Shown here: piece after piece, positions 13,086 to 46,024 of the stretch
How positions within the stretch are numbered: the first letter of the stretch is position 1
Layout of the letters: every line of letters begins with the position of its first letter
Origin: an uncultured Bacteroidales bacterium
GTDB taxonomy: Bacteria; Bacteroidota; Bacteroidia; Bacteroidales; CAIWKO01
DNA length: 64,000 nucleotides
Assembly: GCA_903913285.1 (NCBI GenBank)
Contig: CAIWKO010000067.1
Coordinates: 204 to 64,203 of the forward strand
Direction of reading: 5' to 3'
Translations under genes and position numbers: made by a program
Notes under the pieces: model-generated
Told to the model about the DNA's origin: nothing
Seen by the model: the letters and a program-made list of their open reading frames with translations, nothing else
Databases searched by the model: none

Positions 13086-13088
13086 AGC

Positions 13089-16857: not shown

Positions 16858-16863
16858 GCTGTT

Positions 16864-17376: not shown

Positions 17377-17441
17377 AAAGTTGGGTAAGAGATTAATAAT
17401 AGATTAATAGTTTTTGAAGCAGATCGTCAGTTAATAGTATT

Positions 17442-18509: not shown

Positions 18510-18694
18510 AATTTGGGGTTTGATAAATTAATGTGCTAATTTACAAATTTTAAATTAATTGTTGACATTATCGATAAAATTATTTCAAAACTTAGGTCTT
18601 GAAATATTTGTCTGTTAATGATGATTAATGGATAACTAAACTTTCTGAACTTCTAAATCTCTGAAATAGAGTTCACAAAAATGAGATAATATTT

Positions 18695-19008
18695 AAAAAG
18701 TATAAGGGAAGTCTAAAAAACGATAAGGGAAGTCCAAAAAACGATAAGGGAAGTCCAAAAAACGATAAGGGAAGTCCAAAAAACGATAAGGGAAGTCTAA
18801 AAAACGATAAGGGAAGTCCAAAAAACGATAAGGGAAGTCCAAAAAACGATAAGGGAAATCAAAAAAACGATATTGGAAGTCCAAAAAACGATATTGGAAG
18901 TCCAAAAAACGATAAAGGATGTTCAAAAAATGATAAAGGTTGCTCAAAAAACGATATAGGTTATCCAAAAAACGATAATCACCGTTCTCAAAACGGAAAG
19001 GGATGTTT
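18695..19008. repeat. 21-bp tandem repeat array A (about 14-15 units, consensus AAAAAACGATAAGGGAAGTCC)
   Basis: Exact 21-nt phasing from 18715 onward. Seven near-identical central units, with progressively degenerate units toward 19008. An A6 tract recurs every 21 bp. Confidence 0.92.
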
Positions 19009-19102
19009 AAAAGAAACTCAAATCAACTCAAAATCAATAATTAATAGATTTCGGGCCTTATCTTATTATATGAGAACGTGGTTTTGATTTGACATATCAG
19101 AG

Positions 19103-21702: not shown

Positions 21703-22296
21703 TTACCAAATATTATTCAATAATGTACTATTAATTACTTCAGTGATGTGCATGAATTTAGTAAACATGTCGTCCAATTCATCACTCGAATAAACCTTCT
21801 CGACCATATTCTTTAAACTTATTCTAAAGATATTATCTTCTGTTGATACATTCAGAATTAGCAATCTATTGTTCAGCAGTATATTTTGAATCTCTGCATC
21901 ACTAAAAATAATGTTTATTAGCTTATTATTATTGCTGTATGCCGAAAATGTTTTATCAAAGAGTTTATTGCCTGAGGCAATTTTATTTGTTTTAAATATT
22001 TTATCAAAGAACTCCCTTTCCCATATTGACAATTCTGTTTTTCTAGAAGAAGACTTTTCATACAAACAATTTAACTTATAGGGTTTACCAACCTCTTTCT
22101 CGTACGATTCCGTTTGTATGAAAAATTGAAAAAACTTATAAATATTATTATTATCACTGGCTTCTACATGCAAATGTTGTGAAGTCCCTCCATCTACAAT
22201 ATCAGAATTTTTTTTGACTGTTAGATTTAAATTATGCCGTCCTGAAAATTCTTTCCAGATATCAAGCAATTCGTTATACGATATGATATAACTCAT
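21703..22296 (-). CDS. hypothetical protein (AT-rich orphan)
   Basis: 197-aa ORF, visibly more AT-rich than its neighbours. No signal peptide or recognisable motif. Confidence 0.5.
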   Translation of the reverse strand: MSYIISYNELLDIWKEFSGRHNLNLTVKKNSDIVDGGTSQHLHVEASDNNNIYKFFQFFIQTESYEKEVGKPYKLNCLYEKSSSRKTELSIWEREFFDKIFKTNKIASGNKLFDKTFSAYSNNNKLINIIFSDAEIQNILLNNRLLILNVSTEDNIFRISLKNMVEKVYSSDELDDMFTKFMHITEVINSTLLNNIW

Positions 22297-22408: not shown

Positions 22409-22471
22409 TACCAAATACCAGCTACCAAATACCAAATACCAAATACCAAATACCAAATACCTTTTACCTAA
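22409..22471. repeat. heptamer tandem repeat (9 units, TACCAAA)
   Basis: taccaaa taccagc taccaaa x5 taccttt tacctaa. Abuts and overlaps the TAG stop (22468-22470) of the radical SAM gene. Confidence 0.85.
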
Positions 22472-23808
22472 ATAACGTCTGTCCCTTTCTTAATCAGCCA
22501 CAGCCTTCCCACACTTTCGTAGAACTTTTCAATCGGCAGGGTAGTTTTCAGCACGCTGTTAAAAAAATTGTATTTCATCAGGTCGTGGTCGATGATATCG
22601 TGTTCCACTTCCTTATAAAAAACCGTGCCGGGCATGGGCGTCAGTATGGTGTAGCCTGCATACACCACGCGGTGGGCCGAGGCATAGTCCGACATGGCTT
22701 CAAAGTCGTCTTCCGTATAATCGTTCGGTATCACGTAGTTGCCGCGCAGCATTATGCCGTTGCGGTCGAAAATGTTGATGGCTTCCTCTATCAGCGATGC
22801 CGATGAATCCTTGTGATATTTTTTCAGTTCTTCGTCTCGAAACGACTCGAAGCCGCATATCACCACTTTAAGTCCTGCTTTGGCCATTTTCTCAATCAGC
22901 CACGGGTGTTTCACAGTAGTGTCGAAGCGGATGTCCATCACGAACTCTTTTTCGATGCCTTCTTCCAATATGCGGTCAACCAGCCGGCTGATGAAATCAA
23001 CGTCCACTATGGTATTGGCATCGGCAAAACGAACAATTTTATAATCGTCCAGTTGTTTCAACTCTTCGATGATGCTTTCCAACCTGCGCTGATAAAAATG
23101 CTTGTCGAACTGCGGCCAAATAGAGCAGAACGAACATTCGTAGGGGCATCCCAGCGAAGTGAACAGATAGGTGGCAGGTATGGGTCGGCCGCCAACAATG
23201 TAAGTCGATATCCAGCGTTTCAGCAAACTGCGGTCGGGCATGATGAAATTTTCGCGGGCCGCGTTCCAGGGTTTCACAGGCGCCTGGTTAGGGCGAAGGC
23301 CTTCCGCGGTGTTGAGGTATAAACCGCCAATATGGTCGAAACTTTTGTGTTGCGAATGAGCCAGCGCCACTTCGCGAAACATTCCTGCCGATTGCCCGGG
23401 GCACACCACATCAACTTCGGGCAGATTAAAATCCTGCAGCGACAGCACCGTGTGCAATCCTCCCGCAACGGTCAGTATTTCGGGATTAAATTTCTTTGCC
23501 TCACGAAATATCTCGCAGCCGAAGTAAAACTCCGAAGCAATAAACGTAACGCCAACAATATCGGGTTTAAATTCGGTCAGGTAGCGGCCAATAAGTTCTT
23601 TCAATGGCGGAGCATCGGGATGCAGGTCGTATTCGCCTTTCAGGTCGATGAGTTGCACATCGAAATCTTTCACGGCGGCGGCAATGGTTATAAGTCCGAG
23701 CGGAGGCCCGATAAGTTTTTTATGAATAAAATGTTTTGCTTCGGGCGGAGCATATTCCAGTATGCTGTTGACGGGCGAACGCGGCGGATTTACAAGCAGG
23801 ATTTTCAT
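22468..23808 (-). CDS. B12-binding-domain radical SAM protein (class B)
   Basis: N-terminal cobalamin-binding-like Rossmann region (MKILLVNPP...GLITIAAAV...DIVGVT). CX3CX2C cluster motif LGCPYECSFCSIW. 446 aa. Confidence 0.85.
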   Translation of the reverse strand: MKILLVNPPRSPVNSILEYAPPEAKHFIHKKLIGPPLGLITIAAAVKDFDVQLIDLKGEYDLHPDAPPLKELIGRYLTEFKPDIVGVTFIASEFYFGCEIFREAKKFNPEILTVAGGLHTVLSLQDFNLPEVDVVCPGQSAGMFREVALAHSQHKSFDHIGGLYLNTAEGLRPNQAPVKPWNAARENFIMPDRSLLKRWISTYIVGGRPIPATYLFTSLGCPYECSFCSIWPQFDKHFYQRRLESIIEELKQLDDYKIVRFADANTIVDVDFISRLVDRILEEGIEKEFVMDIRFDTTVKHPWLIEKMAKAGLKVVICGFESFRDEELKKYHKDSSASLIEEAINIFDRNGIMLRGNYVIPNDYTEDDFEAMSDYASAHRVVYAGYTILTPMPGTVFYKEVEHDIIDHDLMKYNFFNSVLKTTLPIEKFYESVGRLWLIKKGTDVI

Positions 23809-24734: not shown

Positions 24735-25133
24735 GTGTTCCATTACTTTTTGCATGTGTTCCATTACTTTTCGCATGTGTTCCATTACTTTTCGCATGTG
24801 TTCCATCACTTTTCGAATGTGTTCCATTACTTTTTGAATGTGTTCCATTACTTTTCGCATGTGTTAACTCACTTAACGCATCTCGTCACTCACTTTTTGA
24901 ATGTGTGAACTCACTTTTCGCATCTCGTCACTCACTTTTCGCATGTGTTAACTCACTTTTCGCATCTCGTCACTCACTTTTTGAATGTGTGAACACACTT
25001 TTCGAATGTGTGAACTCACTTTTCGCATGTGTTAACTCACTTTTTGAATGTGTGAATTCACTTTTAACATCTCGTCACTCACTTTTTGAATGTGTTAACT
25101 CACTTTCTGCATGTGTTAACTAACTTTTCGCAT
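24735..25133. repeat. 21-bp tandem repeat array B (19 units, two subfamilies)
   Basis: Six units GTGTTCCATTACTTTTCGCAT (24735-24860), then 13 units alternating GTGT(T/G)AACTCACTTTTCGCAT and CTCGTCACTCACTTTTTGAAT. Strict 21-nt register throughout. Confidence 0.92.
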
Positions 25134-25176
25134 GTGTTTACATTTCCCGCCTTATTAAAACATCCCAACCTCTATT

Positions 25177-25222
25177 AACCATTTAACCATTTAACTCATT
25201 TAACCAATTAACCGATCAACCC
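25177..25222. repeat. 8-9-bp tandem repeat (about 5 units, AACCATTT)
   Basis: aaccattt aaccattt aactcattt aaccaatt aaccgatc aacc. Confidence 0.7.
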
Positions 25223-25225
25223 CCA

Positions 25226-25330
25226 TTATATCATTGTATCATTGTATCATTGTATCATTGTATCATTGTATCATTATATCATTATATCATTATCTCATTA
25301 TCTCATTGTATCATTATCTCATTGCATCAT
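25226..25330. repeat. 8-bp tandem repeat (about 13 units, ATCATTGT)
   Basis: atcattgt x5, atcattat x3, ctcattat x2, then mixed units. Ends 28 nt upstream of the -7 box of the glycosyltransferase gene. Confidence 0.88.
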
Positions 25331-25374: not shown

Positions 25375-26646
25375 ATGTCAAAAATATTGCTTGCTTCGGT
25401 TCCCTTGTCGGGACATGTAAACCCGGCTGTTTCGCTGGTGAAGATGCTCATCGCGCGCGGGCACGAAGTATGCTGGTATTGCGGGGCCTATTACCGCGAA
25501 ACCATTGAAGCCACCGGGGCAAAGTTTTTTCCGTATAAACGGGCAAAAGATTTTCACGACAGCAGCATCGCCACCGAATTTCCCAATTTGCCCTACACGA
25601 GTTTGTTCCGTCATGCCACCTATTACATCAAGCATGTTTTTTACGACAATATGCACGGGCAGTATCACGATCTGTGCGAAATACTGAAAGATTTTAAAGC
25701 CGACATCCTGCTCACCGACGAATGGTTCACGGGGGCCATACCTCTGGCCGAAAACAAGGTGTTGCCCTGGGTGTGCTACTGCAATTCGCCTTTGTTTTAC
25801 TATACCAACGAAATTCCTTTCCCGGGCTCGGGCATATTCCCCGATGCATCACTTTTGGGCATTGGCCGCAACTACTTAGTGAATAAGATGGTTACCAAAA
25901 TATTTTTCGCAGGGGTTCAGGCCTATATCAACAAGCTCCGCAACGACCTCGGACTGGCGCCTATGAAGCGCTTTTTTTTGATAAACAATATTTTTATTTC
26001 GCGCTGTTTCGTTAAATTCAATACACCGGCATTCGAGTTTAACTGGAATAACCTTCCCGAAACTATACGTTTTGTGGGTCCGGTATTGCCGGAACATTCA
26101 ACCCCCGTCAGTTTTGAATGGACACCGTTGCTGCATTCGGGCAAACCCGTGATATTTATCACGCAGGGCAGCGTCAATATCAGCGATCACAGCAAACTTA
26201 TCGTTCCGGCTTTAAAAGCTTTGCAAAGCTCCGGTGCAATGGTGGTGGTGGCCACAGGCAGCGGTTCAACCGATTCTTTGCAAACGCAGTTCGGCTCAGA
26301 AACCGTATTTATTGACCCCTACATCCCTTACGAATTTATTATGCCTCACGCCTCGCTGATAATAACCAACGGCGGTTTCGGGGGTGTTATCACGGCTTTG
26401 GCGCACGGTGTGCCGTTGATAGTTGCCGGCGATACCGAAGATAAACCCGAAATAGCGGCCCGCATCAAATATTGTAAAGTAGGTATCAATCTGGGCACCG
26501 GAAATCCAAGTCCCCGTCGCATCAAAAAAGCCGTTGAAAAGATATTGCACGATCCGGTTTATAAAAACAATGCCGTCGGCATCAGCAAGGATTTTCAGCA
26601 GCACAATGCTGCATTGGAAACCTGTTTGCTGATCGAGGAAATATAG
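25375..26646 (+). CDS. MGT/UDP-glycosyltransferase family (GT1) glycosyltransferase
   Basis: Start at Met48 of the tracked ORF (MSKILLASVPLSGHVNPAVSL, typical GT1 N-terminus); the upstream 47 codons are the 8-bp repeat array. C-terminal UDPGT signature ...ITNGGFGGVITALAHGVPLIVAGDTEDKPE. Confidence 0.85.
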   Translation: MSKILLASVPLSGHVNPAVSLVKMLIARGHEVCWYCGAYYRETIEATGAKFFPYKRAKDFHDSSIATEFPNLPYTSLFRHATYYIKHVFYDNMHGQYHDLCEILKDFKADILLTDEWFTGAIPLAENKVLPWVCYCNSPLFYYTNEIPFPGSGIFPDASLLGIGRNYLVNKMVTKIFFAGVQAYINKLRNDLGLAPMKRFFLINNIFISRCFVKFNTPAFEFNWNNLPETIRFVGPVLPEHSTPVSFEWTPLLHSGKPVIFITQGSVNISDHSKLIVPALKALQSSGAMVVVATGSGSTDSLQTQFGSETVFIDPYIPYEFIMPHASLIITNGGFGGVITALAHGVPLIVAGDTEDKPEIAARIKYCKVGINLGTGNPSPRRIKKAVEKILHDPVYKNNAVGISKDFQQHNAALETCLLIEEI

Positions 26647-26694
26647 GGCAAAGCCATCAACGGATATTTTCTTTCGGATTGCTTCAAAAAAGTG

Positions 26695-26702
26695 TAATTT
26701 TG
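26695..26702 (+). promoter_or_regulatory. Bacteroidota -7 promoter box (TAnnTTTG)
   Basis: taattttg, 18 nt upstream of ATG 26721. Confidence 0.5.
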
Positions 26703-26720
26703 CACACTACTAAAAAAAAT

Positions 26721-27467
26721 ATGGCTGCCATAATAACCGTCTCCGATCTCGAAAAATCCTACAAAGGAAATCCGGATATGATACTGAAAGGTATCAACCT
26801 TCGGATCGAAGAAGGCGAATTTTTCGGGCTTTTAGGTCCCAATGCAGCCGGAAAAACAACTTTAATCTCTATCATTTGCGGATTATTGAATATCAACAGC
26901 GGCAGCGTGATGGTTAAAAACATCGACATAACGAAACACTATCGCCGTCTCAACAACATCATCGGTCTGATTCCGCAGGAAATAGCGCTTTATCCCACAC
27001 TCACCGTTAAAGAGAACATTCAGTTTTTCGGACAAATGCATGGCCTAACCGGAAAATCGTTGGACGAAAGTGTTGAACGATATATCGAGGTCGTAAAACT
27101 CGAACAACATGCCAACAAACGTATTGCCAATTGCTCGGGAGGCATAAAACGCAGGGCCAATCTTATCGCTGGCCTTATTCATAACCCCGAGATCATTTTT
27201 CTGGATGAGCCTACCCTTGGCGTTGACGCGCAATCGATGTGCCTCATTTACGATTATCTCAACCAATTGAACGGTACGGGCAAAACCATTATTTATACCA
27301 CGCATTACATGAAAGAAGCCGAAAATTTGTGCAATCGTGTGACGATTATCGATGACGGAAAGATCATAGCCATTGGAACCCCAACCGAACTGATTGAAAA
27401 GAATGAGGGATGCACCGATTTGGGTCAGGTGTTTTTAAAATTAACCGGTAGAGAATTAAGAGATTGA
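26721..27467 (+). CDS. ABC transporter ATP-binding protein
   Basis: Walker A GPNAAGKTT, signature CSGGIKRR, Walker B IIFLDEPTLGVD. Start at Met15 (ATG 26721), downstream of the -7 box. Confidence 0.9.
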   Translation: MAAIITVSDLEKSYKGNPDMILKGINLRIEEGEFFGLLGPNAAGKTTLISIICGLLNINSGSVMVKNIDITKHYRRLNNIIGLIPQEIALYPTLTVKENIQFFGQMHGLTGKSLDESVERYIEVVKLEQHANKRIANCSGGIKRRANLIAGLIHNPEIIFLDEPTLGVDAQSMCLIYDYLNQLNGTGKTIIYTTHYMKEAENLCNRVTIIDDGKIIAIGTPTELIEKNEGCTDLGQVFLKLTGRELRD

Positions 27468-27470
27468 TAG

Positions 27471-28925
27471 ATGAAACAACTATTTGCTGTCATAAAAAAA
27501 GAATACATACAGATCATCCGCGACATTCCCGGGCTGATAATTCTTTTTCTGATGCCGCTCATTCTCATCTTTGCCGTTACCGGAACACAGGAAAATGCAT
27601 TTAAAAAACTATACGACAACAAAGCCGATATCCTTTTTGTGGATAACGACCACGAATATCTCGGCAAAACGATTGAAGAAGGACTGAACAAATCGGGTTA
27701 TTTTCATGTGATCAAGGAAGTGGGAGGTGTTACGCTCGATACCACCACGGCGCAACGCGAAATAACTTCGGGCAACTATCAGGTGGGTATTGTGATCAAC
27801 AAAGGCGCTACACAATTTGCCCGGTCAAAAGCTGTTAAACGAATTCAGAAAAGTTTTGTGAGCGACAGCAATGCCGATACAAGCACTAACAAAGTTTTAA
27901 ACGATAATAATATCAGCATTTATTTCGATCCTACCACCCGCGAATCCTATAAAAATGCGGTAACAAGTTCGCTCGAGCGGCTGGTTCAATCGGTGGAAAT
28001 TAAAATGATACTCAGCACTTTTTTCGATGCATTGCCCAACGAACTCAACAAACAATTGCAGCCTCCGGTTAAAAAATTCCTGATCGGGCAGCTTAAAGAT
28101 ATGGAGCAGGTATTTACCGACGAACTGAAAAAACGCATGGGAAACAATCTGCCGTCGAATTTTAAGATCAATGCCCAACCGCGTGAGGTTAAGTTCGACA
28201 TTACCGAAGATATCCGCAAAGGCATAAAATTCAACGACGATCTGGAAAACGATAACCTGATAAGCATTGCGCAAAAGAATGCTCATAACGAAAATGCAGT
28301 CATAAAGCCGACATTGATACAGAACAATGTTCCTGCTTTTGCCTTGTTTGCCATGTTCTTTATTGTCATTCCGCTGGCAGGCAGTTTGCTTGCCGAACGT
28401 AAAGACGGAACTTATAACCGCATCCGAACCTTGCCGGTTACCTATTTTACCATTCTTTGGGGAAAGATAGCCGTTTATGTAACTATTTGTTTGCTTCAAT
28501 TGATATTGATGATTGTGGTGGGTATGTATTTCTTGCCGATGATCTACGGTATACCTGCGCTTTCACTGGGCAGTCATTTTGTGGCATTGATACTTGCAGC
28601 CTTTGCTTCCGCCTTTGCTGCCATAGGTTTTGGATTGCTGGTAGGAACATTTTCAACCACGCACAGTCAGGCGGGCATGTTCGGTGCCTTTATGGTTTTG
28701 ATACTTGCCATATTGGGTGGCATCTTTTTGCCCGTTTATATGATGCCGAAGCCGATGCAGGTTGTTAGTATAATTTCGCCGCTACGGTGGGGAATTGATA
28801 GTTTTTTGGATATATTTGTACGTAATGCGGGCCTGAAGGTCATCTGGCTGAATCTTACCCGCATGTTCGTGTTCTTTATTATTGCATTAATGCTTGCAGC
28901 GCTTACGTTTGTTAAAAGAAAATGA
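27471..28925 (+). CDS. ABC-2 type transporter permease
   Basis: One N-terminal TM helix, an extracytoplasmic segment of about 250 aa, then five C-terminal TM helices. Starts 4 nt after the ATPase gene. Confidence 0.8.
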   Translation: MKQLFAVIKKEYIQIIRDIPGLIILFLMPLILIFAVTGTQENAFKKLYDNKADILFVDNDHEYLGKTIEEGLNKSGYFHVIKEVGGVTLDTTTAQREITSGNYQVGIVINKGATQFARSKAVKRIQKSFVSDSNADTSTNKVLNDNNISIYFDPTTRESYKNAVTSSLERLVQSVEIKMILSTFFDALPNELNKQLQPPVKKFLIGQLKDMEQVFTDELKKRMGNNLPSNFKINAQPREVKFDITEDIRKGIKFNDDLENDNLISIAQKNAHNENAVIKPTLIQNNVPAFALFAMFFIVIPLAGSLLAERKDGTYNRIRTLPVTYFTILWGKIAVYVTICLLQLILMIVVGMYFLPMIYGIPALSLGSHFVALILAAFASAFAAIGFGLLVGTFSTTHSQAGMFGAFMVLILAILGGIFLPVYMMPKPMQVVSIISPLRWGIDSFLDIFVRNAGLKVIWLNLTRMFVFFIIALMLAALTFVKRK

Positions 28926-28951
28926 TTTTATAATTTAAAAGAGCTTTAATT

Positions 28952-29470
28952 ATGAAAGAAAAAGATGTTATCAGCGATTACAAAGTTCAGAAATACATAC
29001 TGTATGCCGAAAAGAACGACGGTTCATACGGAACTGTTGAAGGCGGCTCGTATATCATCGAAAATGATCTGGATGATTTCTGGCATAAAAAAAGCCATCT
29101 GGAAAAAACCTTGCGCGAACGATTATTGAAAAACGAGATCACCCCGGTATATTATTTTATGGTGCTGGAAGAAATGACGGTAGCTGAACTGGCTTCACGG
29201 GCAGGAATCGGCAAAGGCAAAGTGAAATGCCATCTGAAACCCGGTAGATTTCATAAAATAACATTGAACGATCTGCAGAAATATGCCAAAGTGTTCAACA
29301 TTCCGGTTGCGAATTTTTTCCAGATACTGCTGACTTCAACCGATCAGAATCCGAAATATCATTTCTATCATGAAGCGGAAACTAAAAAAGATACGTTTCA
29401 GATGACACAAACCCAAACTCAAAATCCGGCTTTAATTATAACAAAAGTGGAGGAACGAAATAATGGATAA
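28952..29470 (+). CDS. hypothetical protein with putative helix-turn-helix segment
   Basis: MTVAELASRAGIGKGKVKCHL...ITLNDLQKYAKVFNIPVANFF resembles an XRE-type HTH. Its stop overlaps the next start (ATGGATAA, 8-nt overlap). Confidence 0.5.
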   Translation: MKEKDVISDYKVQKYILYAEKNDGSYGTVEGGSYIIENDLDDFWHKKSHLEKTLRERLLKNEITPVYYFMVLEEMTVAELASRAGIGKGKVKCHLKPGRFHKITLNDLQKYAKVFNIPVANFFQILLTSTDQNPKYHFYHEAETKKDTFQMTQTQTQNPALIITKVEERNNG

Positions 29471-30470
29471 AGTAATTCCTTTTGAACATAAAATGTCGGC
29501 GCATTGCGAAACCGGCACACTCAGTTCGCAGCTGGCCTTTCACGGGCTCGAATTATCCGAATCGCTGATATTTGGCATCGGCAGCGGAATATTTTTCGGG
29601 TATTTCAACAACTCTAAATTTCCTTTTCCAACGTTTATAGTAAGAAACAAACCCGGACAGATCAGGAAGAATCTGACCAAACGTTTGGGAATAAAGTTTA
29701 CGAGCGAAACTTTTAAAACCGCAGAGCAAGCTCAAAACAAACTCGATGTGTTGTTGGAAAAAGGCATTCCGCCTGCCACACAGGTCGATTTCTTTTTTAT
29801 GGATTATTTGCCGCAGTATCTGCGGGTGCATATTAACGTGCATTTTATCAATGTGGTTGGCAAAACAAACGGCAACTACCTGATAAGCGATTGTTATTAT
29901 CCGAAAATTGTTGAACTGAAAGCTGAATCGCTCGAAAAAGGTCGGTTCGCGGGTGGAAGTATGGCGCCGAAAGGTTTCCTGTTCTACCCTTCGTTTATTC
30001 CGAAAGAATTTGATTACGAAAAAGCGGTTCGCAAAGGCATTAAAAAAGCCTGTTTCAATATGCTTAAAATCCCTATACCGTTTTTGGGCATAAAAGGCAT
30101 GAGGAAATTTGCAGATCATATAACCGAATGGCCTAAGCTGGCTATGGATAGCGAAGATCTGTCGCATCAGGTGAGCAAGATCAATATATTATTGGAAGAT
30201 CAGGGAACGGGTGGGGCAGGATTCAGGTTTATGTATGCCACATTCCTGAAACAAGCGGCAGAGATACTGAAGAAACCCGAATTGATCGATTTTTCGAAAC
30301 GCATGATGGAAAACGGCGATAAATGGCGCGAAATATCATTGAAGGCTGCCCGCATGGGCCGCGACCGCGACCTGAGTGTCGAAAAACTCAAAGAAGTTGG
30401 CGATCTGATACGGGAAAGGGCAGATGTTGAAGAACTTTTCTTTAAAGAATTGTCGAAAGCAGTAAAATAA
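29463..30470 (+). CDS. BtrH_N/DUF4872-like protein (papain-fold, ACP-dependent acyltransferase-like)
   Basis: N-terminal KMSAHCETGTLSSQLAFHGLELSESLIFGIGSGIFFGYF matches my recollection of the butirosin BtrH N-terminal domain (Cys15 in an HCE context). 335 aa is typical of BtrH_N + DUF4872 proteins. Assignment is from memory of the family, not a search. Confidence 0.65.
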   Translation: MDKVIPFEHKMSAHCETGTLSSQLAFHGLELSESLIFGIGSGIFFGYFNNSKFPFPTFIVRNKPGQIRKNLTKRLGIKFTSETFKTAEQAQNKLDVLLEKGIPPATQVDFFFMDYLPQYLRVHINVHFINVVGKTNGNYLISDCYYPKIVELKAESLEKGRFAGGSMAPKGFLFYPSFIPKEFDYEKAVRKGIKKACFNMLKIPIPFLGIKGMRKFADHITEWPKLAMDSEDLSHQVSKINILLEDQGTGGAGFRFMYATFLKQAAEILKKPELIDFSKRMMENGDKWREISLKAARMGRDRDLSVEKLKEVGDLIRERADVEELFFKELSKAVK

Positions 30471-30537
30471 TATTCGGGTAGTTTAGTATTAATATTAACT
30501 TATTGTTTTTTTATTTCATAAAATTCAGTAAAAAGGA

Positions 30538-30545
30538 TATTTTTG
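30538..30545 (+). promoter_or_regulatory. Bacteroidota -7 promoter box (TAnnTTTG), internal to the cluster
   Basis: tatttttg, 36 nt upstream of ATG 30582, within the only sizeable gap (111 nt) of the cluster. Confidence 0.45.
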
Positions 30546-30581
30546 CAGAAAATTAAGTCTTATAACTAAAAAGCTTAAATC

Positions 30582-30857
30582 ATGGACGAATCAAAAGACC
30601 TGAAACTGCGGATCAAGCAAATGATAGTGGAGACATTAAATTTAAATGATGTAGATCCTGTTGAGATCATTGATGATAAACCTTTGTTCAGCGGCGAAAA
30701 TATTATTACACTCGATTCAATTGACGGGATAGAATTGATCATGGCCATACAGCGAAATTTCGGTGTGCGCCTTGACGATCAGAATCTGGCCCGAAATATT
30801 TTAGAAACAGTGAACAGTATGGCGGAATTCATCACTGCTAATATCAAAGCTTCCTAA
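30582..30857 (+). CDS. stand-alone acyl/peptidyl carrier protein
   Basis: 91 aa, acidic. Phosphopantetheine attachment motif ITLDSIDGIELIMAIQ (DSI Ser) at the start of helix 2. Confidence 0.8.
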   Translation: MDESKDLKLRIKQMIVETLNLNDVDPVEIIDDKPLFSGENIITLDSIDGIELIMAIQRNFGVRLDDQNLARNILETVNSMAEFITANIKAS

Positions 30858-30867
30858 TACCATACCT

Positions 30868-31968
30868 ATGAAGAGTGCCTATCTTCTTGCAGGTATTCAA
30901 CCCCGGGTTTTTTTAAGACTTATACGCCATCACAAATTTACGTGGTTCCCACGATATATTTTTCGTTTTTTGTTTGTTCTGCAAAACTCGATTTGGGCAA
31001 CACTGTTTGCCTGGCGCGACCGAACAAAATACGGCAAAAAGGTAGCTGCCTATACGATGCCGAAAGATCCCGTGTTTATTATCGGTCACTGGCGAACCGG
31101 GAGCACTTTTTTGCATCAGTTGATGAGCCTCGATAAAAACCTTGCTGCTCCGAGCCTTTTTCAAACGGCCCAGCCCAATGGTTTTAAAAGCGGATATAAT
31201 TATTTCAGGCCTTTGATGAAACTCGCGCTGGGTAAAACCCGCCCGTTCGATAAAATGAAGAACAGTATGGACGAACCTCAGGAAGATGAGTTTGCTTTGG
31301 TGAGGCTGACCGGTTTTTCGCCCATGCTGGGACTGGTGTTCCCCAAAAAATTCTCGTTCTTTCTGAAGGAATATTTCCTGTTCTTGCCCGAAACGGCTGA
31401 TGAAATGCTGAATTGGGAAACCCAAACCCGAAAGTTCTATACCAAACTTGCCTGGAACAGTCAAAAGCAATTGGTGTTGAAAAACCCCTTCCATTCTTTT
31501 CGTATTCAGAAACTGCTTGAAATGTATCCCAAGGCAAAGTTCATTCATATTTACCGCAATCCTGTGGATGTGGTTCCGTCAACGGTGCGGATGTGGTCGA
31601 TAGTTGGGTCGCAGAACACGATGAACCGCTACTGGAAGAACCCTGAAATATCGGACGTTTCGGAAATACTGAATTCGCTTCTCGATAGGGTTGAACAGGA
31701 TAAGCATCTGATACCCCAGGGAGCCTATACCGAGATCAGGTTCGAAGATCTTGAACAGGATGCCGTGGCTGCTCTGAAAAAAGCCTATACGGATATCGGC
31801 CTTGAATTTTCGGAAGATTATGAACAGGTGATTCGGAAATATCTTGAAGAGATAACCGATTACGAAAAGAATAATTATTCGCTTCGGGACGGCGAAAAAG
31901 AGATTATTTTGCAGCATCTGAAGCCACATATAATACGTCAACATTATTTGCAGGATGAAAACAACTAG
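30868..31968 (+). CDS. sulfotransferase family protein
   Basis: 5'-PSB loop IIGHWRTGSTFLH and a 3'-PB-like FIHIYRNPVDVVPS. 366 aa. Confidence 0.75.
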   Translation: MKSAYLLAGIQPRVFLRLIRHHKFTWFPRYIFRFLFVLQNSIWATLFAWRDRTKYGKKVAAYTMPKDPVFIIGHWRTGSTFLHQLMSLDKNLAAPSLFQTAQPNGFKSGYNYFRPLMKLALGKTRPFDKMKNSMDEPQEDEFALVRLTGFSPMLGLVFPKKFSFFLKEYFLFLPETADEMLNWETQTRKFYTKLAWNSQKQLVLKNPFHSFRIQKLLEMYPKAKFIHIYRNPVDVVPSTVRMWSIVGSQNTMNRYWKNPEISDVSEILNSLLDRVEQDKHLIPQGAYTEIRFEDLEQDAVAALKKAYTDIGLEFSEDYEQVIRKYLEEITDYEKNNYSLRDGEKEIILQHLKPHIIRQHYLQDENN

Positions 31969-33268
31969 ATTTTTTCCGGCTATCGAACAGAAACCTTTGC
32001 CCGAGATCGTTAAATTTCAGGAAAAGCAACTGCGCGAAGAGTTGAAATATCTTCAGGCGTATTCGAAATACTATAAACGCCTGTTTAAAACTCACCGCAT
32101 CGATATCGGCAAGATCAAAACTTTAAGCGATCTGCAGCATATTCCGTTCACCACAAAGGATGATTTGCAGGAGTTCAACAAGGATTTTATTTGTGTGCCG
32201 AAAAGCAAAATTATTGATTATATCACCACTTCGGGAACCATGGGCGCGCCGGTTACTTTTGCCACCACCGACCACGACCTGCAACGCCTGACCTACAACG
32301 AAGCTATTTCATTTGCCTGTGCAGGCGCCGGAAGGAACGATATTTTTCAACTGATGACAACCATGGACCGCCGGTTTATGGCAGGCCTGGCTTATTTTAT
32401 GGGCTTGCGCGAACTGGGCACGGGCATCGTAAGGGTGGGGTCGGGGATGCCCGAACTGCATTGGGACAGCATTTTCAGGTTCAATCCCAATTATATGATC
32501 GTGGTGCCTTCGTTTATTTTGAAACTTATAGAATTTGCCGAAGCGCATCAGATCGATTACAGAAATTCGTCGGTGAAGAACGCCGTTTGCATCGGCGAAC
32601 CTTTGCGCAATGCCGACTTTTCGCTCAACACGTTGGGCGCACGCATCGCTAAAAAGTGGGATCTGAAATTGTATTCCACTTATGCTTCCACCGAAATGGC
32701 CGCTTCGTTCACCGAATGTAGTTGCGGCCTGGGCGGACATCAGCATCCCGAAATTATCATCACCGAATTTCTGGATGATAGTAATAATCCCGTTAAGGAA
32801 GGCGAAGCCGGCGAAATAACCATCACCACGCTGGGCGTTGAAGGCATGCCGCTGCTGAGGTTTAAAACAGGCGATGTGTGTTATCATTATAACGAACCCT
32901 GCCCCTGCGGCCGAAACACCATCAGGCTGGGGCCGGTTATCGGTCGCAAGCAACAGATGATAAAGTTTAAGGGCACTACCTTGTATCCGCCCGCGCTGTT
33001 CAACATACTGGACGATTTCGAGGTGATCGAAAATTATATAGTGGAAGTAACCACCAACGAAATAGGCACCGACAATGTTTTGATACGTATCGGGCTCAAG
33101 AAGGATGAAGATATCGCGCAAAAGCTTAAAGACAGGTTTCGCGCCAAGATACGCGTGGTGCCCGATATTTTGATACAGCCTGCTGCCGAAATAAACCGCA
33201 TGATGTTTCCCGAATCGAGCCGCAAGCCCGTTAAATTTATTGATAAAAGAGGGGCGAAGTTACCCTAA
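31955..33268 (+). CDS. PaaK/CapK/LuxE-type adenylate-forming enzyme (phenylacetate-CoA ligase family)
   Basis: AMP-binding motif TSGTMGAPVTF, YASTE, GD...RFKTGD. 437 aa, the size typical of PaaK/F390-synthetase-like proteins. Overlaps the sulfotransferase gene by 14 nt. Confidence 0.8.
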   Translation: MKTTRFFPAIEQKPLPEIVKFQEKQLREELKYLQAYSKYYKRLFKTHRIDIGKIKTLSDLQHIPFTTKDDLQEFNKDFICVPKSKIIDYITTSGTMGAPVTFATTDHDLQRLTYNEAISFACAGAGRNDIFQLMTTMDRRFMAGLAYFMGLRELGTGIVRVGSGMPELHWDSIFRFNPNYMIVVPSFILKLIEFAEAHQIDYRNSSVKNAVCIGEPLRNADFSLNTLGARIAKKWDLKLYSTYASTEMAASFTECSCGLGGHQHPEIIITEFLDDSNNPVKEGEAGEITITTLGVEGMPLLRFKTGDVCYHYNEPCPCGRNTIRLGPVIGRKQQMIKFKGTTLYPPALFNILDDFEVIENYIVEVTTNEIGTDNVLIRIGLKKDEDIAQKLKDRFRAKIRVVPDILIQPAAEINRMMFPESSRKPVKFIDKRGAKLP

Positions 33269-34956: not shown

Positions 34957-35400
34957 CCCCTTTGCGGAAAAAAAAAACACCGTTGCGGTGTCATTATGCC
35001 CAATTTCGGAAACAAAAACACCAATTTCGGAACCATTGTACACGATTTCAGGGACAAAATACACCATTGCGGAGCTAGAAAACATCATTGCGGATCCATT
35101 GTGCACGATTGCGGAAACAAAAAACATGATTGCGGAAGCATTGTGCCCCATTGCGCAGCCTTCCGACACGAGTGCGTAACCAAAATACACGAGTGCGCGA
35201 CACTAGTGCCCCATTTCGGACCAAAAAACTCCATTGCGGAACCTTCGCACCCCACTGCGCAACCCTCGAACCCGACTGCGGAAACCTCATGCACCATTGC
35301 GGAGCATCAAACTTCATTGCGCACCCTTCGCGCCCCATTGCGGAAGCCTCAAACTTCATTGCGGAACCAAAATCCCCGACTGCGGAAGCCCGACGCTGGA
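34957..35400. repeat. 21-bp tandem repeat array E (about 21 units, core CATTGCGGAA)
   Basis: The T(G/T)CGG core recurs at 34963, 34984, 35005, 35026 and onward. 3' units include ccattgcggaaccttcgcacc, ccactgcgcaaccctcgaacc, cgactgcggaaacctcatgca. Units are more divergent than in arrays A and B. Confidence 0.88.
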
Positions 35401-35419
35401 GCCGCATTTTTCATAACAT

Positions 35420-35524
35420 AAAACTCAAAACTTAAAACTCTGAACAAAATCTTTCGGCTTCAGGCTTCGATCTTCGTGCCTTTCCCTGTTCCCTTTAGCC
35501 TACAGCCTAAAAGCCCAAAGCCTA
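35420..35524. repeat. heptamer-phased tract (15 units, unit identity drifts)
   Basis: aaaactc aaaactt aaaactc tgaacaa aatcttt cggcttc aggcttc gatcttc gtgcctt tccctgt tcccttt agcctac agcctaa aagccca aagccta. Confidence 0.75.
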
Positions 35525-35598: not shown

Positions 35599-38500
35599 AT
35601 GCGAAAGTTTTTAATCTTCCTTGCCTTTTTCCTCATCTCGTTCATCGTTGTATCGCACGAAAAAGATTCGCTCGATGCCAAACAACTGCGCTTTTTCGAG
35701 AACAAGGGACAATGGGATAAAAGCATCCGCTACAAAGCCGACCTCAACGAAGGCTACCTTCAATGCCTCCCCAACAGCTTGTGTTACGTGTTTCGCGATC
35801 AGTCGAAGCTGAACGATTTGTTGTCGTTCAAACTGCGCGCCCACGGCAAAGATATCAAACCCGATTCGCTCGATTTCATCATCAACTACCACGCCTACCG
35901 CACCAATTTCCTGAATTCGAATAAAGATGTTATCGTTAAAGGATACGAAGCCGCCGCCGACTACAGCAATTATTTTATCGGCAACGACCGCTCCAGATGG
36001 GCATCGAAGGTTTTAAACTACAGCCGGGTTAAATACGAGGGGCTTTACAAAAACACCGATCTGGAACTATCGGAAAAAGACCATTTGCTCGAATATCAGT
36101 TCATCTTGCATCCCGGCGCCGACCCTAATAACATTTTGATGGAATACGAAGGTGCGAACAGCATTTCGCTTCAACACTCCAACCTGATCATAACTACTTC
36201 GGTAAATCAGATAACAGAACTGGCTCCCGTGGCGTATCAGATCATCAACGGAACCAAAACCAACATCGTGTGCAATTTCAAGCTGAATAAGAACAAACTC
36301 TCGTTCGAATTTCCGCAGGGATATAACAAAGATTACGAACTCATCATCGATCCCGTGCTCATCTTCTCCACCTTTTCGGGTTCGCATGCCGACAACTGGG
36401 GTTTTACGGCCACCTACGACGAATTAGGCGATACCTATTCGGGAGGCATTTGTTTTAACGATGTTATCAACGGCTATCTGGTTTCGCCGGGAGCTTTTCA
36501 GATGAATTTTGCAGGTGGCGAAGGCACGTATCCATATGGTTCTCCCACCCCCGGTTGCGATGTGGCGATCATAAAATACGACCCCACGGGTCATAACAGG
36601 CTTTTTGCAACCTATCTGGGTGGCTCAAAGAACGATCTTCCCCACAGTATCATTGTCGATCATGAAGGAAACCTGCTGGTGTTCGGAACCACCGGTTCGA
36701 ACAATTTCCCCATGACACACAATGCCTTCGATTCAACCTTCAACGGCGGCACCAACATTACCTACGATTATGTGCTTACTTTTTCGATGGGAGTGGATAT
36801 GTATCTGGCAAAACTGAGCACCGACGGTACACAATTATTGAATTCAACTTATGTGGGTGGTTCGAGCAACGACGGGATGAACTTTTTTGCTCCATTGAAT
36901 CATAACTATGCCGATGGAGCCCGGGGTGAAATAAATATCGACAACAATAACAACGTGTATGTGGTTTCATCCACCGCTTCAATTGATTTTCCGGTATCTG
37001 CCACGGCTTTCCAACCCATTTATGGGGGCGGCAACCTCGATGGATGCGTGTTTGTGATGGACAACCATCTTCACAGCATGATCTGGTCGTCGTATATAGG
37101 CGGCTCCGACCTGGATGCGGTGTATGGAGTTGTTATCGACGATAGTTCGAATGTTTACATATGCGGTGGCACGGCATCAACAAATTTCCCTACAACATCA
37201 GGTGTACTTCACCCTGCTTATGGCGGCGGACCTGCTGACGGATTTATTTCAAAAATATCATCCAACGGCAGCGTTTTGCTCAGATCTACCTATTACGGAA
37301 CTTTGTTTTACGATCAGGTTTACCTGATGGACCGCAGCAAACAGGGTTATATATATGTTTACGGACAAACCGCCGATCCCGGAAGCTCTTTTATATATAA
37401 TGCGGCATGGAATCACCCGGGCGCCGGGCAGTTTATCAGTAAAATTTATCCTAATCTGAATAGTTTGGTGTGGTCAACCGCTTTTGGCACCGGAAACGGC
37501 GGCCCCGATATATCGCCAACAGCCTTTTTGGTCGATCTTTGCGATAAAATTTATCTTTCCGGATGGGGAGGCGCAGTAAATAGTTTTGGAGGCACTTCGG
37601 GATTGCCTATCAGCAGCGATGCCTATCAAAGCACCACCGATAACAGCGATTTCTATCTTTTGGTGATCAGCGATGATGCATCTACCATGGTTTACGGAAC
37701 GTATTACGGCGGTCCGGTAAGCTATGAACATGTAGATGGAGGCACCAGCCGTTTCGACCGTAAAGGCAAGATATATCAATCGGTTTGTGCCGGTTGCGGC
37801 GGTCACAGCGATTTCCCCACAACACCTTCGGCCTGGTCGAACATGAACAACAGCACCAACTGTAACAATGCCGTGTTTAAATTTGATTTTATGCTGCCCA
37901 TCACCATTGCCGATTTTCAGTTGCCTCCGGTGATCTGTTTACCCGATTCGGTTCATTTCACAAATTTGTCCTATTCTGGCGGAGCGGGAATGACTTATAT
38001 ATGGACTTTTGGAGACGGCAATTCTTCAACCGCGGCCAACCCAACGCATTATTATAATAGTTCGGGAGTTTATAACGTTACCCTTGCCGTGACGGATACG
38101 GGAACCTGTAACTTTTCAGATACGATATCGAAACAGGTGGTGGTGCTGTCAAATTCAAGTGATACCATTCCCACGAAATATATTTGTCTGGGTGATTTTA
38201 TTCAGATCGGAATACTTCCGACAGCTGATACTAATGTTACTTATCATTGGATACCTCCGACTGCACTGAGCGATGCGTATATATGCAATCCAATTTCCAG
38301 TGCAAGCAGCACAACCGTGTATACCTTGTTTGTTTCGAACGGTGTTTGTACCGATACCCTGAGGCAACGATTGGTTGTTTATGATCTGGATGCTTATGGC
38401 GGCATCGATACTGCAACATGCGATGGTCATATAACGTTAACGGCTAATACGTCTCAGGATGTCAATTCAGTTCAATGGTCTTCAACTCATGATTTCACGG

Positions 38501-44979: not shown

Positions 44980-44998
44980 AAATATTTCTACTAAATAA

Positions 44999-45036
44999 TA
45001 AAAAAGAGGCTGCACGATTCGGGCAGCCTCTTTTTA
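44999..45036 (+). terminator. intrinsic terminator
   Basis: Stem gaggctgc/gcagcctc (45006-45030) followed by T5. Confidence 0.8.
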
Positions 45037-45210
45037 TTATTCTTGAGTCGTATTGCAAAAAAAATACAGCGGTCAGAAACTTCTGAGATATTAAATCAGG
45101 TTTTATAGCTTGTTTTTATTTTCTGTTTCGGAATTTTTCTTAAATTTGTACAAATTATAGATTCATTTTATTTATCACTTAAAAAAGTATTCACCAAAAT
45201 TTCAACCGAT

Positions 45211-45876: not shown

Positions 45877-45896
45877 AACGATAGTAAAGGTATATA

Positions 45897-45935
45897 TAAA
45901 AGTCCCGATTGAACTTTCAATCGGGACTTTTTTTG
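45897..45935 (+). terminator. intrinsic terminator
   Basis: 10-bp stem agtcccgatt/aatcgggact (45901-45928) followed by T7. Confidence 0.85.
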
Positions 45936-46024
45936 TGCATTGACTTATGCAATAAAAACCACCGATTACAGTTACCTTAATAATAATTCGTATTTTTGAA
46001 TCGTATTTCATTCAAACCGTTTCT

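Follow-up and report, generated by a model that had tools for sequence, protein, structure and literature searches.

The question raised by this locus is whether eight genes of an uncultured Bacteroidales bacterium, at positions 25375-33268 of the window (the entire 64,000-nucleotide stretch of DNA analyzed here), form a pathway of their own or one part of a larger, divided pathway. A preliminary description had reported eight co-directional genes spaced by -14 to +111 nt, and we reproduced both coordinates and gaps: the tightly packed ORFs all lie on the + strand and are separated, in order, by +74, +3, +26, -8, +111, +10 and -14 nt. All eight family assignments made there, including the BtrH-like, sulfotransferase and carrier-protein calls, were backed by Pfam HMMs (HTH_26 being borderline), and the motifs HWRTGST, TSGTMGAP and DSI with its serine were present in the translations. 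The gene set recurred in related genomes, and its order was seen again in independent genomes whose flanks differ, indicating that it is not a chance arrangement.

The same description had regarded the locus as an orphan of an uncharacterized pathway, a view that we could not sustain. The genes are components of flexirubin/dialkylresorcinol clusters, as identified by NCBIfam matches to FlxY and DarH and by a DarG-like protein. The last gene (31955-33268, +; Pfam AMP-binding, 2e-9) encodes a PaaK-type aryl-acid (4-coumarate) CoA/ACP ligase with TSGTMGAP at residues 91-98, which scored 712.7 bits against the FlxY_rubin equivalog for 4-coumarate-CoA ligase (cutoff 520). Its closest solved structures are phenylacetate-CoA ligases (4r1l, 4e-43). 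FlxY of Chitinophaga pinensis is a biochemically characterized 4-coumarate-CoA ligase of flexirubin biosynthesis, and its in vitro product is the CoA thioester (PMC3992019). The BtrH_N/DUF4872 protein (29463-30470, +; DUF4872 3e-46, BtrH_N 6e-38) matched DarH_acyl at 321.7 bits (cutoff 300). It is preceded by a 172-aa DarG-like protein whose central region is HTH-like (28952-29470, +; HTH_26, 23 bits, cutoff 22), which fell below both NCBIfam cutoffs (flexirubin_DarG, 69.6 bits, cutoff 170; DarG_fam, 65.7 bits, cutoff 70). In each of the 33 genome loci, DarG directly preceded DarH, and in the window the DarG-like ORF runs 8 nt into darH, an overlap suggestive of translational coupling.

We utilized an AF2 model of DarH (pLDDT 88.4) for structural comparison. 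Foldseek returned CtaG (E 7e-11, TM 0.68-0.74), then AziU2/U3 and CcbD; CtaG and CcbD are carrier-protein-dependent papain-like ligases. Cys15, His127 and Asp143 of DarH were invariant across the homologues compared and mirror Cys11, His128 and Asp144 of CtaG (PMC12865890). From this model, DarH is predicted to be a carrier-protein-dependent papain-like transacylase with the BtrH/CtaG fold. The gene that follows encodes a free-standing 91-aa ACP (30582-30857, +; PP-binding, 1e-6) with the motif D45-S46-I47, of which D45-S46 is kept in 28 homologues. The ACP was immediately downstream of DarH in 28 loci and, judging from this neighborhood, is probably dedicated to DarH. The relay proposed earlier, from ligase to free-standing carrier to BtrH-type transfer, is thus plausible in view of the constant ACP-DarH adjacency, the CtaG/CcbD-like model and the triad, but the orphan status claimed along with it did not hold up.

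A PAPS-type sulfotransferase (30868-31968, +; Sulfotransfer_3 8e-30, Sulfotransfer_1 2e-10) carries HWRTGST at residues 74-80. Its 5'-PSB loop (G73-H-W-R-T-G-x-T80) and 3'-PB element (R230-x-P232...S238) were at least 95% conserved across 24 homologues, and an APS kinase gene adjoins DarG in locus L029; together, these features argue that the enzyme is competent. The sulfotransferase adjoined the ACP in 25 of the 33 genome loci, and DarG-DarH-ACP-sulfotransferase recurred as an unvarying block of four genes in 25 of 33 species-level genomes, most of them from anaerobic Bacteroidales and Prolixibacteraceae. At three loci whose DarH is 88-89% identical to that of the window (L008-L010), the site holds just these four genes, without FlxY, GT1 or ABC genes, showing that the eight genes are not an obligate unit.

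The first three genes encode a GT1-family (UGT/MGT-like) glycosyltransferase (25375-26646, +; EryCIII-like_C/UDPGT 1e-13, Glyco_tran_28_C), whose conservation is limited to the window-type clade (L006, L007, L011-L014 and L039), a DrrA/NodI-like ABC transporter ATPase (26721-27467, +; ABC_tran 8e-29) and an ABC-2 permease (27471-28925, +; ABC2_membrane_3 4e-30) whose family (c4) lay upstream of DarG in 23 loci. The ATPase and permease correspond to DarI and DarJ of the dar cluster, DarI being named in the C. pinensis Table S4. The published sub-module Cpin_6845-6849 of that cluster comprises an ABC ATPase, an ABC-2 permease, DarG, DarH and an ACP, and so holds the families of the window: DarI and DarJ, DarG, BtrH-like DarH and the ACP DarC. 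In Flavobacterium johnsoniae, Fjoh_1095-1098 are counterparts of four of these genes, all except the ACP, and the trio of Fjoh_1075 (ligase), Fjoh_1076 (C45 acyltransferase) and Fjoh_1077 (CrtI-like reductase) corresponds to FlxY and families c10 and c15 of a second arrangement. DarA and DarB were seen in none of the loci viewed, so the name flexirubin in its strict sense is not supported.

The functional unit reaches further upstream than the border previously placed at 25375, since a B12/radical-SAM gene and an outer-membrane protein gene are co-conserved with the eight genes. The B12-binding radical-SAM enzyme (22468-23808, -; Pfam B12-binding and Radical_SAM; NCBIfam HpnR, 124 bits, below cutoff) resembles HpnR/BchE-type C-methylases. 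Its gene is divergent from the eight-gene block, is likewise adjacent and divergent in L007, L011, L013, L014 and L039, and belongs to a family found in 21 loci. The 804-aa CarboxypepD_reg/Plug outer-membrane protein (19103-21517, -; CarbopepD_reg_2 2e-17, CarboxypepD_reg 2e-15, Plug weak at 1e-3) belongs to a family (c7) found in 17 related loci, where it adjoins rSAM/DarGH genes; in L044 a homologue is immediately upstream of an FlxB-KS core. By this context, it is the probable outer-membrane component of the system. The 197-aa ORF at 21703-22296 (-; no NCBIfam match, a single sub-threshold Pfam match) is not matched by any ORF between the rSAM and outer-membrane protein genes of L007 and L011; it appears specific to the window's lineage, and its membership in the system is doubtful. 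Tandem Repeats Finder revealed a repeat tract upstream of the GT1 start (24745-25330), made up of a 21-bp unit in 18.8 copies (24745-25138), short 8/17-bp repeats (25174-25213) and CATTGTAT in 13.4 copies (25224-25330). The gap between the rSAM and GT1 genes is only ~90 bp in L007 and L011, indicating that this tract is lineage-specific.

We then searched for the missing assembly line. No KS, condensation domain or thioesterase was found in 25375-33268 or among the ~40 larger ORFs scanned in the 64-kb window, and no KR, DH or FlxA among the window ORFs scanned. The reported lack of a PKS/NRPS core therefore stands for the interval and the scanned ORFs, but relatives do have a type II KS/KR/DH core, which adjoins the module in L043 and L023 and occupies another site of the same contig in L044/L039. 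In L043, which is the contig of L013 and has a DarH 77% identical to that of the window, a window-type module lies back-to-back with the core, sharing a divergent region. This core runs FlxB-KS-ACP-LpxL-like-B12 rSAM-dehydratase-DarG'-DarH'-ABC/ABC-2-thioesterase-KS, with an ApeP-like dehydratase, a 4HBT thioesterase and the second KS last; FlxB scored 403 bits (cutoff 340), the TIGR04072 rSAM protein 414 (360) and DarH' 398 (300). In L023, FlxA (834, cutoff 700), FlxB, KS, an LpxL-like gene, an O-methyltransferase and a FabZ-like dehydratase lie directly upstream of DarG-DarH-ACP-sulfotransferase-rSAM. On one 4.86 Mb contig, the core is at 0.36 Mb (L044) and the nine window-type genes are at 4.18 Mb (L039), 3.8 Mb apart. 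The FlxA-containing core protein P0190 lies on a contig exactly as long as the chromosome of L017. Two metagenome samples, ERZ27313067 and ERR4193245, contained exact copies of an FlxB-like protein from a KS core cluster together with the window's exact DarH; for the window's own organism, the case for a core rests on this co-occurrence and on relatives rather than on a linked contig.

Gene content points in the same direction. None of the core clusters viewed carried an AMP-ligase, and FlxY occurred only in the satellite in the clusters viewed. FlxA was seen only with core genes (L042, L023). Core and satellite thus complement each other, although no FlxA was found for window-type genomes among the best 120 matches. 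We consider it reasonably likely that the window locus represents one half, the satellite, of a split pathway for flexirubin-like aryl-polyene lipid pigments that occurs in uncultured anaerobic Bacteroidales, the eight genes supplying starter activation, acyl transfer, tailoring and export. If this interpretation, which we favor with some reserve, is correct, the system comprises the eight genes and the divergent B12-rSAM gene, and probably the outer-membrane protein gene as well.

The satellite could also run autonomously: it brings an ACP and an ABC exporter of its own, and its DarH is a deep paralogue of the core DarH', sharing no more than 34-37% identity with it. In these terms, the model of the preliminary description becomes a KS-less thiotemplated pathway independent of the polyene core, in which FlxY loads an aryl acid onto the ACP and DarH acylates a small molecule or glycoconjugate that is sulfated and/or glycosylated and exported. 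This is the less likely account, although several observations favor it: the unit is kept amid unrelated flanks and can lie megabases from the core, it includes a deeply divergent DarG/DarH pair, the core clusters viewed possess DarG'/DarH'/ABC sets of their own, and the minimal four-gene set persists in L008-L010. There is also a precedent in the CtaG fold, by which a carrier-protein-bound aryl acid (PHBA) is transferred without any KS (PMC12865890). However, no acid-activating enzyme other than FlxY was seen across the system, FlxA (TAL), the maker of its characterized substrate, was seen only with core genes, satellite and core are contiguous in L023 and L043, and a satellite-clade DarH is located within a KS-containing cluster (L032).

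Two further explanations start from individual genes. The grouping of glycosyltransferase, ABC-2 exporter and sulfotransferase genes, together with the LpxL-like acyltransferases and the ArnT-like PMT_2 gene of related clusters, might indicate a standard surface-polysaccharide module sulfating and acylating capsule, O-antigen or lipid A. We consider this very improbable: neither the window ORFs scanned nor the annotated related-locus neighbors viewed included genes for sugar-nucleotide synthesis, for Wzx/Wzy/Wzz or KpsMT-type proteins or for initiating transferases, the glycosyltransferase is of the small-molecule/UGT type GT1 rather than GT2 or GT4, and the curated matches are FlxY and DarH, linked to FlxA, FlxB, KS and dehydratase. 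The locus is instead a module of a different, partly characterized system. Even harder to credit is an antibiotic self-resistance or detoxification cassette of the macrolide-glycosyltransferase type, formed by the GT1 and DrrAB-like ABC genes beside unrelated genes. The best NCBIfam matches do include MGT and OleI for the glycosyltransferase and DrrA for the ATPase, but at scores far under the cutoffs (MGT, 121 bits against 260; OleI, 51 against 700; drrA, 234 against 312; NodI, 211 bits, also below cutoff). Moreover, at least eight genomes keep GT1-ABC-ABC2 in synteny with DarG-DarH-ACP-sulfotransferase-FlxY, and ABC/ABC-2 beside DarG/DarH is the canonical dar arrangement.

In the split pathway that we prefer, a type II KS/KR/DH core with its own DarG'/DarH'/ABC set would be located elsewhere in the genome. 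FlxY would adenylate a 4-coumarate-type aryl acid, as its characterized orthologue suggests, and pass it on as a CoA thioester or straight to the adjacent dedicated ACP. DarH, with its coupled partner DarG, may then accept the carrier-bound acyl group on Cys15 in a CtaG-like ping-pong reaction and deliver it either to the polyene assembly line, as starter transfer, or to a lipid or sugar anchor at a hydroxyl or amine group. Tailoring of the product would fall to the sulfotransferase, GT1 and B12-rSAM enzyme, with the aryl head offering its free phenol as the obvious site of sulfation or glycosylation. Transport to the cell envelope would rely on the DrrAB/NodIJ-like ABC-2 transporter together with the outer-membrane protein. 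Among flexirubin-type modules, that of the window is unusual in its conserved sulfotransferase and in providing a second, divergent DarG/DarH acyl-transfer pair besides DarG'/DarH' of the core. The expected product in these anaerobic Bacteroidales would be an aryl-polyene-type envelope lipid, sulfated and/or glycosylated, rather than a classical dialkylresorcinol ester.

The eight co-directional open reading frames of the preliminary description were all found at 25375-33268, and Pfam backed each of its family calls. In order along the forward strand, they encode a glycosyltransferase assigned to the GT1 superfamily only (25375-26646), a DarI-type ABC ATPase (26721-27467; Pfam ABC_tran), a DarJ-type ABC-2 permease (27471-28925; Pfam ABC2), a 172-aa DarG-like protein (28952-29470), a BtrH_N/DUF4872 protein (29463-30470), a 91-aa ACP (30582-30857), a sulfotransferase (30868-31968; Sulfotransfer_3, 8e-30) and a PaaK-type ligase (31955-33268), with spacings of +74, +3, +26, -8, +111, +10 and -14 nt. 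The sulfotransferase motif HWRTGST, the ligase motif TSGTMGAP and the D-S-I motif of the ACP were present in the translated proteins. NCBIfam gave far more specific assignments than Pfam. The ligase scored 712.7 bits against the FlxY_rubin equivalog NF053551 (cutoff 520), and the BtrH-like protein scored 321.7 bits against 'BtrH-related acyltransferase DarH' (cutoff 300). The only NCBIfam matches of the putative HTH protein were to flexirubin DarG (69.6, cutoff 170) and the DarG family (65.7, cutoff 70), both below cutoff, so that it is DarG-like without being a member. The sulfotransferase matched no NCBIfam family. Identical copies of the locus occur on several metagenome contigs. A sigma-70 promoter scan, which does not cover Bacteroidota promoters, returned 28 sites against 31 expected from shuffles, and an intrinsic-terminator scan returned 20 against 17; no operon boundaries were drawn from these scans.

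The gene clusters behind flexirubin-type and aryl-polyene pigments form a family that ranks among the most widespread in bacteria. The flexirubin/dialkylresorcinol clusters closest to the locus are flxA-flxY (Cpin_1853-1877) and dar (Cpin_6843-6852) of Chitinophaga pinensis, a pathway split over two loci, and Fjoh_1074-1110 of Flavobacterium johnsoniae. FlxY of C. pinensis is a characterised 4-coumarate-CoA ligase that starts flexirubin biosynthesis, and the dar cluster comprises darE, darD (KS), darC (ACP), darJ (ABC permease), darI (ABC ATPase), darH (BtrH-like), darG, darB, darA and darF (PMC3992019); darJ, darI, darH and darG correspond to Fjoh_1095-1098 (PMC3992019 supplement). Set against this list, five of the eight genes form a DarC/G/H/I/J sub-module (DarH above cutoff, ABC_tran and ABC2 found, ACP adjoining) and a sixth is FlxY, leaving only the GT1 and sulfotransferase genes as additions. 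The locus had been put forward as an orphan, uncharacterised pathway and a candidate novel system. Given the FlxY equivalog, the DarH and DarG-like genes and the published dar sub-module, neither claim holds, and the locus represents no new kind of biosynthetic system.

We analyzed the conservation of the neighbourhood by scanning one genome per GTDB species for DarH and comparing neighbouring genes by tblastn and ORF clustering. This yielded 33 loci, all in metagenome-assembled genomes of Bacteroidales, Prolixibacteraceae and, more distantly, Fibrobacterota; the hosts are mostly anaerobic Bacteroidales and Prolixibacteraceae. DarG lies directly upstream of DarH in every locus, the ACP directly downstream in 28 of 33, and the sulfotransferase adjoins the ACP in 25. 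Of the eight loci with no sulfotransferase beside the ACP, two are contig ends and five are the most distant (DarH ≤55% identical to that of the window). FlxY was located within ~2 kb in 17 of 33 loci. The exact window arrangement (divergent B12-rSAM, GT1, ABC, ABC-2, DarG, DarH, ACP, sulfotransferase, FlxY) recurs in five loci of related genomes (L006, L007, L011, L012 and L014); a sixth, L013, keeps this order up to DarH, where the contig ends. It was also found with unrelated flanks on a 4.86 Mb contig (L039, DarH 67% identical). An alternative arrangement with DarH 59-65% identical was seen in L015-L031, L037 and L038. It runs CrtI-like oxidoreductase, C45 acyltransferase, B12-rSAM, small ORF, CarboxypepD_reg outer-membrane protein, sometimes an LpxL-like gene, O-methyltransferase, ABC-2, DarG, DarH, ACP, sulfotransferase, ORF and FlxY, and its ligase/C45/CrtI-like trio is the same as Fjoh_1075-1077. 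Three loci with DarH 88-89% identical (L008-L010) retain only DarG-DarH-ACP-sulfotransferase at the syntenic site. These four genes are thus the constant core, to which GT1, FlxY and the ABC genes are movable additions. Outside Bacteroidota, in Fibrobacterota/Chitinispirillaceae (L033-L036), we observed DarG-DarH-ACP of the satellite type (that of the eight-gene block, see below), without sulfotransferase or FlxY; repeated secreted proteins and a sensor/response-regulator pair follow in L034-L036, and the downstream genes of L033 differ.

In the window, the outer-membrane protein gene (19103-21517) and the rSAM gene (22468-23808) are part of the conserved neighbourhood, whereas a 197-aa ORF, a 221-aa ORF and the tandem repeats between them lie outside it. 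Dense tandem repeats (24745-25330) lie in the 756 bp that precede the GT1 start codon: a 21-bp unit in 18.8 copies and CATTGTAT in 13.4 copies, the CATTGTAT array stopping 45 bp short of the GT1 ATG. Close relatives have only ~90 bp upstream of GT1, indicating that the tract is an insertion specific to this lineage. It may influence expression, for instance if its copy number varies. A second, degenerate repeat tract at 35015-35440 has unit lengths of 21, 63 and 83 bp and abounds in CCATTGCGG-like motifs; it lies just upstream of the gene for a 1334-aa T9SS type-B-sorted SprB/PKD/SBBP surface protein (35599-39603). Lipoprotein-like genes form two arrays of tandem paralogues (2095-3502 and 44311-47435; GC 30-34%), which comprise, in one case, three ORFs of ~150 aa (43-51% identical) and, in the other, four of ~215 aa (30-42%), all with signal-peptide/lipobox-like N-termini. 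Genes for xanthine dehydrogenase (xdhC, xdhA, xdhB; 12321-16857), citrate lyase (citF and a fused citD-citE; 39643-42421) and a DltB-like MBOAT with an adjoining ORF (60077-61501) are ordinary housekeeping or metabolic neighbours.

The preliminary description had noted the lack of a PKS/NRPS core. Within the window this observation stands: neither 25375-33268 nor ~40 of the larger ORFs of the 64 kb contained a KS, a condensation domain or a thioesterase, and KS/KR/DH polyene machinery and FlxA were likewise absent from the ORFs scanned. For the system it does not stand, since relatives carry KS cores adjoining the module, hereafter the satellite (L043, L023), or on the same contig (L044 with L039); the absence of a KS is thus a property of the window. 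In L023, FlxA (834 bits, cutoff 700) and FlxB (404, cutoff 340) directly precede DarG-DarH-ACP-sulfotransferase-rSAM, and the stretch from FlxB to DarG encodes KAS I/II, an LpxL-like acyltransferase, an O-methyltransferase, a FabZ-like dehydratase, a flavodoxin-like protein and a CrtI-like enzyme. Upstream on the contig of L013, which belongs to the window-type clade (L043; DarH 77% identical), core genes continue beyond the rSAM gene divergent from GT1. They encode a PMT_2 glycosyltransferase, an ORF, FlxB (403, cutoff 340), KS, ACP, an LpxL-like protein, a B12-rSAM, an ApeP-like dehydratase, a second DarG (DarG'; DarG_fam 117, cutoff 70), a second DarH (DarH'; 398, cutoff 300), ABC, ABC-2, a 4HBT thioesterase and a second KS. 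This B12-rSAM (13173-14546) scored above the cutoff of the TIGR04072 'lipid biosynthesis B12-binding/radical SAM' equivalog (414, cutoff 360), a family first noted beside ladderane-associated lipid genes. On the 4.86 Mb contig, the window-type module lies at 4.18 Mb and a separate core at 0.36 Mb (L044: outer-membrane protein, FlxB-like, KS, ACP, LpxL-like, rSAM, dehydratase, DarG', DarH', ABC, ABC-2, 4HBT). A further core, L042, consists of FlxA, FlxB, KS, ACP, LpxL-like, rSAM, dehydratase, two tandem DarG'/DarH' pairs (16577-19505), ABC, ABC-2 and 4HBT. The 4.86 Mb and 130 kb window-type contigs were not among the FlxA homologues listed (down to ~60% identity).

A FlxB-like protein 87% identical to that of L013 was found within a core cluster of the same kind on contigs of samples ERZ27313067 and ERR4193245, both of which also contain the exact DarH of the window, and in sister samples of the BUCK21-1 and ERZ1426xxx series. 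The source organism of the window very probably has a KS core, as judged from this sample co-occurrence and from the relatives rather than from a linked contig.

Genomes with both modules carry two anciently diverged DarG/DarH (+ABC) sets. The window DarH is only 34-37% identical to DarH' of the cores, compared with 48-66% to satellite-type DarH from Bacteroidales, Fibrobacterota and Chitinispirillaceae, and the canonical DarG/DarH models score the core paralogues above the satellite ones (398 for DarH' vs. 321.7). The satellite set has an ACP of its own. Flexirubin clusters, in contrast, have one DarG/DarH set.

The BtrH_N (6e-38) and DUF4872 (3e-46) domains of DarH were recognized by Pfam; its sequence had no match in the PDB at E ≤1, and only the fold search was informative. 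The AlphaFold2 model (pLDDT 88.4, pTM 0.87) matched CtaG best in a Foldseek search of the PDB (E 6.6e-11, TM 0.68-0.74), followed by AziU2/U3 and CcbD (E 7e-7), at only 13-16% sequence identity to CtaG/CcbD-type matches. In both paralogue clades, C15 (within an invariant H-C-E), H127 (within H-x-N-x-H) and D143 show no substitution (13 diverse paralogues, 40 close homologues); they form a predicted Cys-His-Asp catalytic triad whose positions parallel C11/H128/D144 of CtaG. In the papain-like ligase CtaG (triad Cys11-His128-Asp144), p-hydroxybenzoate moves from a carrier protein via Cys11 to an acceptor by a ping-pong mechanism, and BtrH and AsbE have the same fold (PMC12865890). The transfer logic proposed from the sequence, in which the ligase loads the ACP and a BtrH-type enzyme passes the acyl group on, is therefore plausible and well founded as a mechanism, given the CtaG-like fold, the invariant residues and the adjoining ACP. 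Acyl transfer from an acyl-S-carrier protein by DarH itself is predicted from the conserved ACP adjacency (28 loci). The acyl group may go to an alcohol, which would give an ester, or to another carrier protein. A PDB search with the DarG profile matched designed repeat proteins and a single uncharacterised protein, and nothing else; in Pfam, the DarG-like protein has a borderline HTH_26 hit.

Enzymes of the CtaI/CtaH/CtaG (closthioamide), BtrJ/BtrI/BtrH (butirosin) and CcbD/LmbD (lincosamide) systems share the bipartite fold of DarH and, by apparent analogy, an acyl donor borne on a small stand-alone carrier protein from a neighbouring gene; in CtaG this donor is a p-hydroxy-aryl acid. These enzymes form amides during antibiotic biosynthesis in Firmicutes and Actinobacteria. 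DarH, for its part, always comes with DarG and mostly with an ABC-2 exporter as well.

In the sulfotransferase, the motifs GHWRTGxT (5'-PSB) and RxP...S (3'-PB) were at least 95% conserved in 24 homologues, all of which had both PAPS-binding motifs, and the nearest solved chains were 2zq5 (1e-7) and 2z6v (4e-4), which are mycobacterial Stf sulfotransferases. In L029, a locus of the alternative arrangement, an adenylyl-sulfate (APS) kinase gene (8691-9308, minus strand) lies directly upstream of DarG, which would fit local provision of PAPS to the sulfotransferase. We found no description in the literature of a sulfated flexirubin or aryl-polyene variant, or of a sulfotransferase in such clusters.

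Taken together, the locus is probably the satellite of a split flexirubin/aryl-polyene-type pathway whose product would be a sulfated and/or glycosylated envelope lipid. The satellite would contribute starter activation, acyl transfer, tailoring and export. It shares with flexirubin clusters the FlxY equivalog, DarH, the DarG-like protein, the DarI/J ABC pair and the ACP, to which relatives add FlxA, FlxB, KS, dehydratase, LpxL-like and C45 acyltransferases, a CrtI-like reductase and an O-methyltransferase. The main rival, in which the satellite is autonomous and runs a KS-less aryl-acyl transfer pathway with its own ligase and ACP, seems rather unlikely to us. The core clusters viewed contained no adenylate-forming enzyme, FlxY was found only in the satellite and the tyrosine ammonia-lyase FlxA, the source of the substrate characterised for FlxY, was seen only beside core genes, which argues that core and satellite work together. 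We also weighed the glycosyltransferase and transporter genes as part of a capsule/LPS module or of a macrolide-type GT1/ABC resistance cassette. Both readings were judged unlikely and rejected; for the latter, the GT1 protein scored far below the MGT (121, cutoff 260) and OleI (51, cutoff 700) models.

The locus also differs from known clusters. Resorcinol-forming DarA/DarB, part of flexirubin clusters, had no NCBIfam match in the window proteins scanned or in those of L017, L023, L032 and L043, nor did they occur among the Pfam-annotated neighbours in L039-L044. A conserved sulfotransferase is present, together with GT1 and an HpnR-like B12-rSAM depending on clade. In contrast to flexirubin hosts, the carriers are uncultured and mostly anaerobic, and Fibrobacterota carry satellite-type DarH without the sulfotransferase. 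Aryl-polyene (APE) clusters, as in E. coli and Xenorhabdus, share the ApeP-like dehydratase, LpxL-like acyltransferases, a glycosyltransferase and envelope-export genes. Their free-standing aryl-acid ligase ApeH and ACP ApeE reportedly prime an iterative type II KS/KR/DH system (work of Grammbitter et al. from 2019). The ligase here is of the FlxY/PaaK type, DarG/DarH and ABC-2 replace the MMPL/LolA-type export set, and a sulfotransferase is present, none having been found reported for APE clusters in the literature. In the Xenorhabdus lipids, the aryl polyene is esterified to a GalNAc-phosphate-glycerolipid, which indicates that such clusters can anchor the chromophore on a glycolipid instead of a resorcinol. 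This precedent fits the LpxL-like, PMT_2 and GT genes and the absence of DarA/DarB from every locus viewed. The celluxanthene aryl-polyene alkaloid pathway, with an iterative PKS and KAS III and no BtrH-like enzyme, was set aside as unrelated.

A bolder proposal, which we regard as possible though doubtful, is that DarG-DarH-ACP-sulfotransferase constitutes an undescribed aryl-polyene-lipid branch in anaerobic Bacteroidota. The second, paralogous CtaG-fold transacylase would take an aryl or polyenoyl unit activated by FlxY and attach it to an acceptor other than a resorcinol; the products would be aryl-polyene envelope lipids that are sulfated and, in this clade, glycosylated. If true, this would assign a function to DarG/DarH, which have been without one since the dar cluster was described. 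The locus bears on the delivery of the aryl starter to the assembly line, on chain off-loading and on the roles of DarG, DarH and the ABC pair. Here the ligase and a CtaG-fold transacylase, together with a dedicated ACP, are set apart from the KS core, and a sulfotransferase is tied to a divergent DarG/DarH set across many anaerobic Bacteroidales. The locus thereby provides a testable hypothesis, that DarH is a thiotemplated acyl-transferase, and predicts a sulfated lipid-pigment class in organisms not known as flexirubin makers. Its chief value is as a way into the function of DarG and DarH.
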